From: Alphaproteobacteria bacterium
GTDB lineage: Bacteria; Pseudomonadota; Alphaproteobacteria; SP197
DNA: 64,000 nt
Direction: 5' to 3'
Assembly: GCA_964291415.2 (NCBI GenBank)
Contig: OZ219917.1
Location: 480,001 to 544,000, forward strand
The notes beneath the pieces are model-generated. The model was not told where the DNA came from. It did not search any database and saw nothing but the letters and a program-made list of their open reading frames with translations. Both the position numbers and the translations under genes were made by a program. Of the stretch, positions 56,139 to 62,279 are shown piece after piece. Every line of letters starts with the position of its first letter. Position 1 is the first letter of the stretch.

Positions 56139-56203
56139 CCTGAACAGCCGAGCCGGCTACAATGAATCCGATGAGAGCAACAACTGAAGAGAGGGAGGTT
56201 CCA

Positions 56204-57370
56204 ATGACATTGAAGCCATTGATGGAGACGACCCGTTTCCACGACCTGTTGTGCGAAGGCAAACTCAACCGCCGTGATGCCCACCGCGTCATGGCGAGCT
56301 TCGGTATCGGCACTCTGACCGCCCACTCCCTGGGAGGAAGCGCGCTCGCCCAGGAAGCCGACGAGGACCATCCCATATTCTTCACCTGGGGCGGCTATGA
56401 CGAGCCGGAATTCATGGTCCATTACACCGCGAAGTACGGCCGCGAGCCGAACTACCACTTCTTCTCCGACGAAGACGACGCCTTTGCCAAGATGAGGGGC
56501 GGCTACAATCCGCACGTGACCTATCCGTGCGGCCCCTCGCTCAAGCGCTGGTACGATGCGGGCTTTCTGGCGCCGATCGAGACCGACCGGCTTTCCAACT
56601 GGCCCGACGTCATGCAGGTCTTCAAGGACGTGCCCCACTCGGTGGTGGACGGCGTCAGGGTCTATGTGCCGGAGGACTGGGGCCAGACCTCGATGGTCAT
56701 CCGCACCGACGTCGCGCCGGAGTATGCTGATCCCGAGAACCAGACATGGAAAGCGTTGTGGGACGAGAATTATGCCGGCCGCGTCTCGATCTCCAACTCT
56801 TCCTACGAGGCTTTCGCCATCGCGGCCCTCGTCCTGGGTATCAGCCCCTGGAACATGAACGAGGCCGAACGCATCCAGTGCGAGGATCTCCTGCGCAAAC
56901 AGATTCCGCTCAACCGTGTGATCGGGGCCTCGTTCACGGAGCGTGTGCAGGCGGTGGCAGCGGGTGAAGTCGTGATATCGACGAACGACAACGGTGCCGT
57001 TGCGGAGCTTGCGACGCATGCCGAAGGCGGCAGCTTCGAATTCACGTGGGCCACGCCCAAAGAAGGTGCGATCACGTGGCATTGCGGCCTGTGCATCCAT
57101 CCCGCCGCGATCACCGACGGCTTCTACGAGAAGGCGCACGACATCATCGACTCCTTCATTTCGCCCGAAGCCGGCGCCTACGAGATCGGCAACTGGTACT
57201 ACGGGCACTCCAACGTGAAGTCCTACGATGGGTTCGATGAGGAGTTCCTCAACTCGATCGGTCAGACCAAGTACGTCGAGGAGTTTCTCGCAACCGCCCA
57301 GTTCCAGCAGACGATGAACGAGCCGGACGTGCTTGCCACCCGTTGGGAAGAGCTGAAGGCCGGGTTCTGA
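56204..57370 (+). CDS. PotD/PotF-like ABC substrate-binding protein, copy 1 (Tat-like signal)
   Basis: NRRDA signal, FFTWGGYD, PEDWG, PKEGAITW; GGGAGG RBS. Confidence 0.85.
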   Translation: MTLKPLMETTRFHDLLCEGKLNRRDAHRVMASFGIGTLTAHSLGGSALAQEADEDHPIFFTWGGYDEPEFMVHYTAKYGREPNYHFFSDEDDAFAKMRGGYNPHVTYPCGPSLKRWYDAGFLAPIETDRLSNWPDVMQVFKDVPHSVVDGVRVYVPEDWGQTSMVIRTDVAPEYADPENQTWKALWDENYAGRVSISNSSYEAFAIAALVLGISPWNMNEAERIQCEDLLRKQIPLNRVIGASFTERVQAVAAGEVVISTNDNGAVAELATHAEGGSFEFTWATPKEGAITWHCGLCIHPAAITDGFYEKAHDIIDSFISPEAGAYEIGNWYYGHSNVKSYDGFDEEFLNSIGQTKYVEEFLATAQFQQTMNEPDVLATRWEELKAGF

Positions 57371-58703: not shown

Positions 58704-58768
58704 CCTGATCAGCCGCGCCAACCATGATGAACCCGTTGAGACCAACTAATGAGAAAGGGGAGGTTCTT

Positions 58769-59935
58769 ATGACGTTGAAGCCACTGATGGAGACGACCCG
58801 TTTCCACGACCTGTTGTGCGAAGGCAAACTCAACCGACGTGATGCCCACCGTGTCATGGCGACCTTCGGTATCGGCACTGTGACCGCGCACACCCTGGGA
58901 GGGGGTGCGCTGGCCCAGGAAGCCGACGAGGATCACCCGATCTTCTTCACCTGGGGAGGCTATGACGAACCGGAGTTCATGGTTCACTACACCGCGAAGT
59001 ACGGCCGCGAGCCGAACTACCATTTGTTCGCCTCCGAGGACGAGGCCTTTGCCAAGATGTGGGGCGGCTTCGAGCCACACGTAACCTACCCGTGCGGTCC
59101 CTCGCTCGCGCTCTGGTACGACGCGGGCCTTCTCGCGCCGATCGAAACCGACCGGCTTTCCAACTGGCCCGACGTCATGCAGGTCTTCAAGGATGTGGCC
59201 GACTCGGTGGTGGACGGCGTCAGGGTCTATGTGCCGGAGGACTGGGGCCAGACCTCGATGGTCATCCGCACCGACCTCGCACCGGAGTACGCTGATCCCG
59301 CAAACCAGACATGGGAAGCGTTGTGGAACGAGAAGTATGCAGGCCGCCTCTCGATCTCCAACCACTCCTACGAAGCCTTCGCGATCGCGGCTCTCGTCCT
59401 GGGTATCAGCCCCTGGGACATGAACGAGGCCGAACGCATCCAGTGCGAGGATCTCCTGCGCAAGCAGATGCCGCTCAACCGCGGGCTCGAGTCCTCGTCC
59501 ACGGAGCGTAGCCAGGCAGTGGCAGCGGGCGAACTCGTGATATCGACGAACGACAACGGAATCGTCGCACAGCTCGCGGCGCATGCCGAAGATACCCCGA
59601 TGGAGTTCGCCTGGGCCACGCCCAGGGAGGGTGCACTCACGTGGCATTGCGGCCTGTGCATCCATCCCGCCGCGATCAGGGACGGCTTCTACGAGAAGGC
59701 GCACGAGATCATCGACTCCTTCATTTCGCCCGAAGCCGGCGCCTACGAGATCGGCAACTGGTACTACGGGCATTCCAACGTGAAGTCCTACGAGGGGTTC
59801 ACCGAGGAGTTCCTCAATTCGATCGGTCAGACCAAGCGCGTCGAGGAGTTCCTCGCGACCGCCCAGTTCCAGCAGACGATGAACGAGCCGGAGGTGCTCG
59901 CCAATCGTTGGGAAGAGCTGAAGGCCGGGTTCTGA
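58769..59935 (+). CDS. PotD/PotF-like ABC substrate-binding protein, copy 2
   Basis: Colinear with copy 1; about 49 substitutions in 388 aa by manual count. Confidence 0.85.
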   Translation: MTLKPLMETTRFHDLLCEGKLNRRDAHRVMATFGIGTVTAHTLGGGALAQEADEDHPIFFTWGGYDEPEFMVHYTAKYGREPNYHLFASEDEAFAKMWGGFEPHVTYPCGPSLALWYDAGLLAPIETDRLSNWPDVMQVFKDVADSVVDGVRVYVPEDWGQTSMVIRTDLAPEYADPANQTWEALWNEKYAGRLSISNHSYEAFAIAALVLGISPWDMNEAERIQCEDLLRKQMPLNRGLESSSTERSQAVAAGELVISTNDNGIVAQLAAHAEDTPMEFAWATPREGALTWHCGLCIHPAAIRDGFYEKAHEIIDSFISPEAGAYEIGNWYYGHSNVKSYEGFTEEFLNSIGQTKRVEEFLATAQFQQTMNEPEVLANRWEELKAGF

Positions 59936-59974
59936 TCTTTCGGCTCGCTTGACCGACCCTGAGGTGCGCAGTCA

Positions 59975-59999
59975 GGCCCGGCACCGGTGGTGCCGGGCC
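59975..59999 (+). other. 11-bp stem-loop after SBP copy 2
   Basis: GGCCCGGCACC-GGT-GGTGCCGGGCC. Confidence 0.6.
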
Positions 60000-60338
60000 G
60001 ATGGCTCCCTGCCTTGGGGCGAGATCCGTCCCCTGTCTGCCGCCATGCGGCGCGAACTTCGCCACGCCTGATCCTGCGTGTTGAGCGAAAACGTCGGGAA
60101 AGACGGATCCTCTCACCGCACGACCGGAACAGCGAGTGTGCCTCACCGGTTCCTCGGCTCGCGGATACGCCGTGCGATGGCATGGATCGGATGGCAGGCA
60201 GGACGTCGTCGCCTTCGAGTCCGGCGCCGGGAACCGGTGATCGGCGATGTGATGACGATGCGCAAGGCGGCAGGGCCCCGGCCGACAACGCCCGGTGGCT
60301 TCCTTTGGGAATTGTATACGAAACTTGACAGAATAGAC

Positions 60339-60367
60339 TTGACATCCAGTGGTGTTATCGATATGAA
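60339..60367 (+). promoter_or_regulatory. putative sigma70 promoter for tnpB
   Basis: TTGACA-N17-TATGAA in the AT-rich left end. Confidence 0.5.
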
Positions 60368-60408
60368 TTCGTTTGTTAAATCAGTGTTCTCAACACCGGA
60401 GTCCCCGC

Positions 60409-61608
60409 ATGTCGTCCTCTGTCACCTATCGACAGATCACCTTTCGCCTGCTGCCCGAGAAACGCAGCACCTGGCGGCGGCTGGAGGCCATGCTCGACGC
60501 TGAGCGCTGTCTCTACAACGCGGCGCTGGAAGAACGGATCGACTGCTACCGGAAGACCGGCAAGTCACTCACCTACTTCGATCAGGCGAAGTCCCTGACC
60601 GTGTGCCGCAAGACCCTGCCGGACATGGCGGCGGTGCCGGTGGCCATTCAGCGTGGGACGCTCAAGCGCCTCGATCATGCCTTCAAGGGTTTCTTCCAGC
60701 GGGTGAAGCAGGGTGGGGCCGGGTTCCCCCGGTTCCAGGGACGCCGGCACTTCAACAGCCTTTCCGTGGTCTCCGGCGTCAGGGTCGAGGGCAATCGCCT
60801 GCGCATCCCCGGCCTGGGCTGGCTGACCATCCGCCGCCGGGGCGGCAATCCCTGGCCGCAGGGCACGCCGGTGAGTGCGGTCCTCAAGCGCGAGGAGGGA
60901 CGCTGGAAGGCGGTGGTATGCCATGCGGTGTCGCTGCCGGAATCCGACGACAACGGCCATGCGGTCGGCGTGGACATGAATGCGGGCCAGGTGGCGACCT
61001 CGGACGGGGAGATCCTGCGCCTGGAGAGGAGCCGTCGTCTCAAGGCTCGCGCCCGGCGCTACGCCAAGCAACTGGCGCGGCAGCGCCGTGGCAGCAGGCG
61101 GCGGGAGAAGACGCGGCGGCGTCTGGCGAAGACCACCCGGCACATGGCCATGAAGCGCCATGACTGGCAGCACCACGTCAGCCGCCGGTTGGCGGATGCG
61201 GCGGGGACGGTGGTGGTCGAGGATCTGAAGGTCCGCAACATGACCCGCAGCGCCGGGGGCACGAAGGAGGAGCCGGGACGCCACGTGCGCTCCAAGGCGG
61301 GTCTCAACCGCGTCATCCTGGAGACGGGCTGGTCGTCGTTCCGGAGAATGCTGGACTACAAGGCTTGCCGCGTCATCGCGGTGAACCCGGCCTACAGCAG
61401 TCAAACCTGTGCAGCGTGCGGCGTCACAAGCGCCCAATCACGCAGGACGCGGGACCTGTTTCAATGCGTGGCGTGCGGCCATGCGGATCACGCCGACCTC
61501 AATGCAGCGGCGAACATTCTGGCCTCGGGGACTGAGGCATCTGCGCGGGGAGGTTGCCGGGTTGCCGGGCCTGCGAACCGCGAAATCGATCGGAAGATGG
61601 CAGCATGA
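60409..61608 (+). CDS. tnpB: RNA-guided endonuclease TnpB
   Basis: N-terminal YNAAL/GFPRF; RuvC-I GVDMN, RuvC-II VVEDL, Zn finger CAACG...CVACG, RuvC-III HADLNAA. The D-E-D triad is intact. Confidence 0.95.
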   Translation: MSSSVTYRQITFRLLPEKRSTWRRLEAMLDAERCLYNAALEERIDCYRKTGKSLTYFDQAKSLTVCRKTLPDMAAVPVAIQRGTLKRLDHAFKGFFQRVKQGGAGFPRFQGRRHFNSLSVVSGVRVEGNRLRIPGLGWLTIRRRGGNPWPQGTPVSAVLKREEGRWKAVVCHAVSLPESDDNGHAVGVDMNAGQVATSDGEILRLERSRRLKARARRYAKQLARQRRGSRRREKTRRRLAKTTRHMAMKRHDWQHHVSRRLADAAGTVVVEDLKVRNMTRSAGGTKEEPGRHVRSKAGLNRVILETGWSSFRRMLDYKACRVIAVNPAYSSQTCAACGVTSAQSRRTRDLFQCVACGHADHADLNAAANILASGTEASARGGCRVAGPANREIDRKMAA

Positions 61609-61655
61609 CGCTGTCAACTTCTCGATATAAGTCCCCTTCCTTTCCTGTACCCGTG
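61522..61655 (+). ncRNA. predicted omegaRNA (reRNA) scaffold plus guide, overlapping the tnpB 3' end
   Basis: Stem GCCTCG/TGAGGC with loop GGGAC complementary to the terminal GTCCC (61631-61635); stems CGCGG/CCGCG and ATCGA..GAAG.TGGCAGC/GCTGTCA.CTTC.TCGAT; guide would start at 61636. 5' end uncertain. Confidence 0.7.
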
Positions 61656-61729
61656 CGGGATGAACCACACGGACACATCGGATCCGACATGGCATTGGAA
61701 CTGACACGTCCTGTGCCGGAGCGCACACG

Positions 61730-62122
61730 GTGACGGCCAGACGCCCGGCCCGCGAGCTGGCTGCCGAGCTCTGGCGCCTGTTCGATGCCGGGCGATTTCG
61801 CGACGCCCTGCCGTTGCTCGCGGAGGACTTCGAAGCGCACTGGCCCAATACCCGGGAGCGCATCCGCGGCCGGGAGAACTTCATCGCCCTGAACGAGAAC
61901 TACCCGGGTCACTCGCGCTGCACGGTCCGGCGGATCGAGGAATGCGCGGATGGCGTGGTGACGGTGACCGAAATCAGCACCCAAGTCGGCGATGACCGGT
62001 TCACGTTGTTCGCGGTGTCGTTCTTCCATGTGCGGGATGGTCGAATCGCTGCCGCCGAGGAGTACTTCAGCGAAAACGGGCCGCCGCCGTTCGACCGCTC
62101 CGCCTGGGCGGAACGCTACTGA
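61730..62122 (+). CDS. SnoaL/NTF2-like protein
   Basis: LLAEDFEAHWPNTRERIRGRENF, NENYPG, SFFHVRDGRI, EYF. Confidence 0.85.
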   Translation: MTARRPARELAAELWRLFDAGRFRDALPLLAEDFEAHWPNTRERIRGRENFIALNENYPGHSRCTVRRIEECADGVVTVTEISTQVGDDRFTLFAVSFFHVRDGRIAAAEEYFSENGPPPFDRSAWAERY

Positions 62123-62279
62123 GTCACCGTCGAAAGACCGGGTATCCGTGTCTCGCTTCCGCCATCAGCGGCGGTGCGCGCACGAACCGCGGCACATTCA
62201 GGGTGTGGGTGTCGAGTGCACGTGAGCCGAGCGGTTTTCTGCAATCCGAGAAATCAGCCATGACCACTGCGAGCACCCT

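Follow-up and report, generated by a model that had tools for sequence, protein, structure and literature searches.

A tnpB element with IS1595-type ends whose right terminal repeat probably doubles as an omegaRNA scaffold

What does an RNA-guided nuclease do for a transposon that duplicates a different target sequence at each insertion? The question is raised by a 1329-bp element at positions 60307-61635 of the window, meaning here the whole 64,000-nt stretch of DNA that was analysed (contig OZ219917.1, positions 480,001 to 544,000, from an Alphaproteobacteria bacterium). The element has imperfect 25-nt terminal inverted repeats (TIRs), an 8-bp target-site duplication (TSD), and an intact tnpB as its sole gene. 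TnpB is known mainly in association with transposases that excise scarlessly and insert beside a fixed motif, which doubles as the target-adjacent motif (TAM). Recent reviews treat it as an open question how such a nuclease could serve a DDE transposon whose TSDs vary (PMC13565253).

The best explanation, and a probable one, is that this is a non-autonomous tnpB element with IS1595-type ends, its right TIR doubling as the omegaRNA scaffold and its guide being read from the flank. A first-pass annotation of the sequence had proposed that the right TIR is dual-coded in this way, and the proposal holds up on both sides. The right TIR is a transposon end because of its TSDs, its many copies, and the ends that it shares with IS1595 transposase elements of the same genome. 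As for the scaffold, the terminal hairpin of the predicted RNA (stem 4) covaries strongly with TIR bases, and the geometry fits that of the ISDra2 omegaRNA.

Boundaries, copies, and partner transposases

The DNA features of the element are as follows.

60299-60306, no strand assigned: left TSD copy, CTTCCTTT, identical to 61636-61643
60307-60331, plus strand: left TIR, complementary to 61611-61635 at 18 of 25 positions and the common start of all source-genome copies
60339-60367, plus strand: TTGACA-17 nt-TATGAA, a tentative tnpB promoter noticed by eye
60409-61608, plus strand: tnpB, 399 codons plus TGA (ATG at 60409, TGA at 61606-61608)
61611-61635, plus strand: right TIR, where all copies end

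The two TIRs differ at positions 5, 8, 12, 13, 14, 15, and 18; the mismatch list of the first-pass annotation (5, 12-15, and 18) had omitted position 8. The region contains 188 inverted-repeat pairs, among which the TIR of the element ranks third by length, and pairs of similar quality are common. In this single sequence, neither the TIR nor a 5-nt complement between a hairpin loop and the terminus of the element beats chance. Both are judged real because of repeated copies with TSDs and because of the comparative data below. A consensus scan of 60200-61800 returned no promoters and no terminators, which leaves the TTGACA-17-TATGAA motif unconfirmed and means that stem 4 does not qualify as a terminator by the rule of the scan.

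The source genome (G000, 4.44 Mb) contains the window copy, three further full copies at 94-97% identity, one copy split by a 1805-bp insertion, and one truncated copy. All of them start exactly at the equivalent of 60307 and end at that of 61635, with unrelated flanks and complete divergence beyond. Each terminates in ...AAGTCCC followed by unrelated sequence, and 61635 is thus the true last base of the element. The TSDs of the five complete source-genome copies match at 8/8 positions in three cases, over 7 bp in one, and over 4 bp in one; the 8-bp TSDs of other copies differ in sequence from CTTCCTTT. Across relatives, 30 distinct insertions have a TSD matching at 6/8 positions or better, and these TSDs are AT-rich with a roughly symmetric pattern. 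The right flank is present without the element in all five related genomes examined; a search for a clean empty site, with seven loci compared by BLAST, found none, the left flank being unalignable. The TIRs and variable 8-bp TSDs set the element apart from the IS1341 group of the IS200/IS605 family, which is defined by the absence of TIRs and TSDs and by a fixed target motif.

Several other loci in the source genome touch on these copies. The 1805-bp insertion (G000 C2:85682-87486), which is of unassigned kind, splits its host copy near the equivalent of window position 61499. A second, divergent TIR-type tnpB element lies on the minus strand at G000 C1:386626-387906 (L014, L227), with a 403-codon open frame, the TSD AAACACT(T/C), and G at position -1; its stem 2 reads GACGG/CCGTC, and its stem-1 loop GGGAT stands opposite GTCCC. 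A solitary right-end remnant at G000 C1:829080-829121 (L019) retains the stem-4 hairpin and a ...GTCAGTCCC terminus and has neither stems 1 and 2 nor an upstream tnpB.

A search with the end sequences leads to a 3.16-kb element in the source genome (G000 C2:46358-49518) that has the left-TIR type at both ends, each differing from the left TIR of the tnpB element by 4-6 mismatches in 25. Its transposase (C2:48464-49444) matches DDE_Tnp_IS1595 and Zn_ribbon_IS1595, and a second such gene adjoins it. Transposases of this kind occur in 18 of the 23 genomes of the genus. From 21 loci examined, 12 further transposase-bearing elements were delimited, with TIRs matching at 12-16 of 16 positions and TSDs at 7-8 of 8. 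None of these 13 IS1595 elements carries both a transposase and tnpB, and the tnpB element itself has no DDE_Tnp_IS1595 transposase, tnpB being its only long open reading frame (ORF) with a protein-family match. In its ends and TSD it is like the transposase-bearing members, and 8-bp TSDs are found in both kinds of element. Because IS1595 transposase elements in the same genome share its ends and none contains tnpB, it is probably a non-autonomous IS1595-family element that is moved in trans. Its ends presumably resemble the end consensus of the ISNwi1 group.

The element at C2:46358-49518 adjoins a second IS1595-family transposase element at ~C2:49528-51995 (L018, L339), which has inserted at the edge of the former. 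Passenger ORFs are present in both elements, and one of these ORFs, of 464 aa, has no Pfam match.

TnpB matches the NCBIfam model guided_TnpB at 209.1 bits (cutoff 100) and the Pfam families Cas12f1-like_TNB (68.4 vs 26.3) and OrfB_IS605 (52.9 vs 30.5); it falls below the NCBIfam cutoffs for IS200_TnpB (165.3 vs 425) and IS607_TnpB (96.7 vs 350). Its GVDMN, VEDL, and HADLNAA motifs, presumably the sites of the catalytic D, E, and D residues, align with the corresponding motifs of a solved TnpB-like chain. Residues 8-374 align with the ISDra2 TnpB chains 8h1j and 8bf8 (E ~2e-32), with RuvC motifs in register. Among the best 80 of 405 matching stretches, the closest relatives, down to ~37% identity, terminate soon after the stop codon in ...TATA(A/T)N(N)TCCC, and more distant relatives have the canonical ...GGAGGATGTCAA end. 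Left ends of the TIR type with 8-bp TSDs are found in records from Alphaproteobacteria, Gammaproteobacteria, Dehalococcoidia, and Thermodesulfobacteriota.

In a midpoint-rooted maximum-likelihood tree of 70 proteins, obtained by a quick search with the careful search unfinished, 27 TIR-type TnpBs form one clade with a Shimodaira-Hasegawa-like approximate likelihood ratio test (SH-aLRT) support of 100. Two divergent TIR-type sequences (L047 and L074) and three untyped ones adjoin it. Because the TIR-type clade is coherent and spans several phyla, the first-pass view of a stable integrated system, as opposed to a chance nested insertion, is borne out.

The fold at the right end

The structural features of the predicted RNA are listed below.

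61522-61538, plus strand: stem 1, GCCTC(G)/(T)GAGGC, whose loop is the 5′ strand of the pseudoknot; helix 99.5% paired in 42 sequences
61544-61582, plus strand: stem 2, 61544-61548 (CGCGG) with 61578-61582 (CCGCG), around a variable stem 3; 99% paired
61589-61626, plus strand: stem 4, a long hairpin with the stop codon in its loop (61605-61609); the 3′ strand, 61610-61626, is right-TIR sequence
61631-61635, plus strand: 3′ strand of the pseudoknot, GTCCC, also the outermost TIR bases; pairs with the stem-1 loop GGGAC

The fold is conserved well beyond the window. Invariant blocks stand out when the final 120 nt of 25 elements are aligned (A1, MAFFT). From this alignment RNAalifold recovers stem 1, the long-range stem 2, and the base of the long hairpin at the end; both partners have changed in 9 of the 22 pairs. 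Once the pseudoknot is included, 93.2% of the cells are paired, as against 36-42% after the 3′ partners have been shifted by 1-3 columns. A covariance model built without the pseudoknot (R1) finds matches in 13 of the 33 genomes of the order, all in one genus. Of 93 matches (84 distinct), those preceded by an open frame of 350 codons or more were kept, 44 in all and 42 of them distinct. In the last ~115 nt of these 42 relatives the ISDra2-like omegaRNA architecture, composed of stem 1, pseudoknot, stem 2, and terminal hairpin, is conserved with covariation. Including the pseudoknot, 92.3% of the cells are paired vs 33-43% in slid registers, the covariation score is 0.301 vs at most 0.076, and none of 500 shuffles reaches the observed value. 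Covariation among homologs, which the first-pass annotation had suggested testing, is seen in stem 2, is strong in stem 4, and is modest in the pseudoknot.

The strand on which this conservation acts can be read from the wobble pairs. Over the whole structure there are 194 G·U to 26 A·C, and within stem 4 the counts are 118 and 8. It is therefore the sense strand that is under selection, which fits an RNA and not protein sites in double-stranded DNA.

Stem 1 begins at -114 relative to the end of the element, with its loop at -108 to -104, and the scaffold of ISDra2 measures 116 nt; one pair of stem 1 is GC in 31 sequences and CG in 11. In stem 2 the first pair is CG in 40 sequences and GC in 2, and the second is AU in 33 and GC in 9. 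The helix reads CGCGG/CCGCG in the window lineage, CACGG/CCGTG in most others, and GACGG/CCGTC in the second family of the source genome. The stop codon of tnpB moves between lineages, lying at -54, -29/-28, -26, -19, or -7 from the end in others, and the fold is retained; it is therefore no by-product of coding.

Stem 4 is the part of the fold that overlaps the TIR most extensively. It pairs 61589-61604 with 61610-61626 in both the minimum free energy (MFE) fold of the window and the comparative fold, so that 16 of the 25 TIR bases form its 3′ strand, and the hairpin appears in the separate MFE folds of all 25 lineage sequences. Taken alone, it is 89.5% paired vs 34-48% in slid registers; both sides have changed in 59 cells, and none of 500 shuffles reaches its covariation score of 0.434. 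The first-pass annotation had paired the TIR with 61585-61604. The TIR bases do form the 3′ strand; the register was slightly off, the 5′ strand being 61589-61604, and an outer ATCGA (61585-89)/TCGAT pairing is an alternative enabled by the ATCGATCG repeat. The stop codon does lie in the stem-4 loop of the window (TGA at 61606-61608 in a 5-nt loop), a placement that is specific to some lineages.

The inner TIR differs between families, and within a family the left and right ends agree at 7-16 of 16 positions. It is this family-specific sequence that the stem-4 5′ strand pairs with, so left TIR, right TIR, and stem-4 5′ strand change together. A further argument from the first pass, that mismatches between the two TIRs concentrate where the right end must pair as RNA, is rejected: with 19 of 25 TIR positions paired, chance alone would place 5.3 of the 7 mismatches in paired positions, and the count is 5-6. 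In L026, L034, L039, and L239 the left and right TIRs are nearly identical at positions 10-25 (14-16 of 16), so the fold does not require a diverged right end.

The pseudoknot is likely real, though less firmly shown than stem 4. As first noted, the hairpin GCCTCG-GGGAC-TGAGGC carries a loop (61528-61532) that is the exact complement of GTCCC at 61631-61635. This helix alone is 91.4% paired in register 0 and falls to 67% when slid by -1 and 55% when slid by +1; seven cells are changed on both sides, and 1 of 500 shuffles reaches the observed value. Inspection by eye finds the compensatory form GGGAT/ATCCC in three separate lineages (L027, L047, and L239), the wobble forms GGGAC/GTTCC, GGGAT/GTCCC, and GGGGC/GTTCC, and GCCCC ends that could pair with a GGGG loop in a shifted register. 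In canonical relatives, also by eye, the same loop pairs with the NGTC of a ...GATGTCAA end, as GGGCA or GGACA with TGTC, and both sides are changed in L084 (GGGCT/AGTC) and L179 (GGACG/CGTC). This suggests that the loop found a new partner in the TIR tip upon exchange of the end.

A pattern scan of metagenomes for the RNA core was less productive. Most of the best 80 of 119 stretches proved to be chance matches in GC-rich genes; seven among these 80 are real loci (L114, L139, L146, L147, L148, L158, and L179). All seven have a ...GATGTCAA end, and the scan therefore added no TIR-type sequences.

Another repeat in the source genome, at G000 C2:344593-344689 (minus strand) and C4:1169364-1169460, contains the omegaRNA 5′ core only (stems 1-3) joined to unrelated 3′ sequence. 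Contigs from the RNA-library run X1 show the same junctions, as loose ends at 61521 and 61584.

Guide start, the G at -1, and competing readings

Two positions outside the element bear on where a guide would start.

60298, plus strand: G directly 5′ of the left TSD, candidate TAM base
61636-61655, plus strand: predicted guide, comprising the right TSD copy (61636-61643) and flank; length assumed from characterised TnpBs

The proposed mechanism would run as follows. IS1595 transposases encoded elsewhere in the genome would move a non-autonomous element that prefers AT-rich targets and carries a catalytically intact tnpB as cargo. The 3′ end of the tnpB transcript would become the omegaRNA, with a scaffold from ~61522 to 61635 made up of stem 1, the GGGAC/GTCCC pseudoknot, the long-range stem 2, the variable stem 3, and stem 4, with the inner right TIR as its 3′ strand. 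Flanking sequence would supply the guide, beginning with the TSD at 61636. TnpB with this omegaRNA would recognise and cut the insertion site that lacks the element, which reads G, then the TSD and right flank, and such cutting would favour retention or copying of the element.

The base directly preceding the left TSD is G in 28 of 30 distinct insertions of tnpB elements (L268 and L270 share a site, leaving 29 independent ones), against a background of ~30% G at -12 to -2; L004 and L020, which lie outside this set, also have G at -1. For a guide that began at the first TSD base, this would be the TAM position of the empty site, which would support a boundary between scaffold and guide at 61635/61636. 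From its position, the G looks like a minimal TAM for a guide that starts at the TSD.

The alternative that survives best, though it remains unlikely, accepts the fold and takes the G at -1 as a target choice of the transposase instead of a TAM, leaving TnpB some role other than cutting of empty sites. AT-rich and roughly symmetric TSDs suit it, as does the base on the other side: C just 3′ of the right TSD is mildly raised (14/30), and part of the G signal could thus be a transposase preference. The strong asymmetry between 28/30 and 14/30 argues in the other direction. So do the 12 transposase-bearing IS1595 elements, which are unbiased, with the G-equivalent base at 8 of 24 ends, in a control that is small and whose transposases are 52-63% identical to one another.

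A decidedly improbable alternative ends the omegaRNA scaffold inside the element, for example at TCAA (61617), as the first-pass annotation had itself considered. The last 18 nt would then be a transposase site only, and the loop would match the terminus merely because each sequence happens to be conserved. Ends of the form ...GGAGGATGTCAA do occur in relatives that share the RNA core, canonical IS605-type ends being ...GATGTCAA, and the window has GCTGTCAA at 61610-61617; the modest covariation of the pseudoknot also fits. A boundary at TCAA is nevertheless unlikely, since the motif is missing from the corresponding place in several TIR-type lineages (L026, L027, L030, and L041). Against an internal end stand, further, the covariation of stem 4 out to 61626 and the pairing of loop with terminus in register 0 only, with its three GGGAT/ATCCC lineages. 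With GTC at 61613-61615 the loop could make only three pairs, and these would clash with stem 4. A fixed internal guide would, moreover, leave the G 5′ of the left TSD unexplained.

Hardly tenable is a reading of the right-end repeats as DNA-level features, either subterminal transposase-binding repeats or a DNA hairpin: the inner TIR is common to both ends and its third, inverted upstream copy could be another binding site, but the excess of G·U over A·C is asymmetric between strands as binding sites in double-stranded DNA are not, covariation extends to stems 1 and 2, which are not part of the TIR, and tnpB is absent from the 13 transposase-bearing elements, whose TIRs are near-perfect.

Several points weigh against the explanation of the right TIR as scaffold with a guide from the flank. 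A TAM of one base would be unusual, and cut-and-paste excision already leaves a break, which makes the benefit of homing doubtful. The stems, but not the pseudoknot, guided the fitting of the 42-sequence alignment (A3). Covariation of the pseudoknot is thin, with a score of 0.159 vs 0.125 for the best slid register and two of five pairs changing on both sides; its two strands vary very little, and the 3′ one, being the TIR tip, is under a second constraint. Misfits with at most four pairs occur in L026/L030 (GGGAT/TTCCC), L039 (GGGAG/ATCCC), L041, L257, and the L238 family (4 bp only). The MFE fold of the window's own sequence (61516-61635) retains stem 4 without stems 1 and 2; the solved ISDra2 RNA likewise differed from its predicted fold, according to the structural account in PMC10097598. 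An Rfam scan of 59900-62200 gave four matches at E up to 10, all far below gathering scores. One of the weak matches in this region, to RsmV on the minus strand (59912-60048; 18.5 bits vs a gathering score of 100), is taken as chance.

RNA libraries add the presence of copies. Four RNA-library runs were examined, all in the form of contigs, and sponge metatranscriptome contigs contain copies from related strains. One contig of run X1 spans 61258-61635 and continues for 145 nt into another flank, and two contigs of run X3, starting from 61598, likewise continue past the right end into another flank. Such contigs indicate presence only, not RNA ends, strand, or level, and DNA carry-over may account for them.

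Relation to known systems

The closest solved parallel is ISDra2. Its RNA has a 116-nt scaffold in which -5 to -3 pair with -103 to -105 in the stem-1 loop, as described in PMC10097598. The window element has in common with it a homologous TnpB and a scaffold of ~115 nt with a 5′ hairpin, a long-range stem 2, and a hairpin at the end; the loop of the 5′ hairpin pairs with the final bases of the scaffold, just ahead of the guide. In both, the 3′ end of tnpB and the right terminus of the element share sequence with the scaffold. The window element differs in having inverted repeats, an 8-bp TSD, and no fixed target motif, where ISDra2 has subterminal hairpins, no TSD, and a TTGAT target. It also has no Y1 TnpA, a longer stem 4, a pseudoknot at -5 to -1, and a candidate TAM of a single G.

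TnpBs associated with DDE transposases and bounded by inverted terminal repeats, and solo TnpBs proposed to be moved in trans, are treated in a section of Altae-Tran et al. 2023 (PMC10691335). With the branches described there the window element shares inverted terminal repeats, a tnpB 3′ end near the transposon end (27 nt here), and a solo TnpB with the ends of transposase elements. IS630 is the sole such family named there in the main text, and the section on these branches contains no RNA structure or overlap with a TIR. A 2026 review names ISL2, IS630, and IS1031 and, in the passages concerned, does not mention IS1595 (PMC13565253). In the literature collection searched, no account was found of a TnpB with IS1595-type ends or of omegaRNA helices encoded in a TIR, although the association may be tabulated among the DDE branches of PMC10691335.

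Fanzor offers a eukaryotic and viral parallel. In the relevant parts of Jiang et al. 2023 (PMC10530073), its guide RNA (fRNA) overlaps the right inverted repeat of the transposon, and the TAM sometimes agrees with the insertion site; a Fanzor TAM tends to match a TSD of specific sequence, TA or TTAA for instance, as summarised in PMC13565253. The window element differs in its bacterial protein and in a TSD that is variable and would lie inside the guide. With the IS1595-family elements of the same genus that carry transposases it shares GGGGATTATATAC-type ends, an 8-bp TSD, and AT-rich targets, and differs in lacking a transposase gene and in a right TIR that diverges from the left (18/25) and carries RNA structure.

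A wider claim is tentative and falls somewhat short of being probable. It would see in these elements a clade, spread across phyla, of active TnpBs in non-autonomous cut-and-paste elements of IS1595 type, with the right TIR recruited as pseudoknot and stem 4, the TSD serving as the first 8 guide nt, and a single G as minimal TAM. Such a clade would be a concrete case of a guide that begins with the TSD and a TAM of about one base. If the claim is true, RNA-guided cutting of empty sites supports a bacterial DDE transposon without a sequence-specific target, a bacterial counterpart of Fanzor biology. One 25-nt stretch would have to satisfy both a transposase and an RNA fold, which makes the elements a natural experiment in overlapping DNA and RNA codes, and the clade would be a source of compact nucleases whose TAM requirement may be very loose.

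Just upstream of the element, the window contains two similar plus-strand ORFs of 402 and 403 aa (56162-57370 and 58724-59935) with a 331-aa ORF between them, an arrangement that looks like a local duplication.

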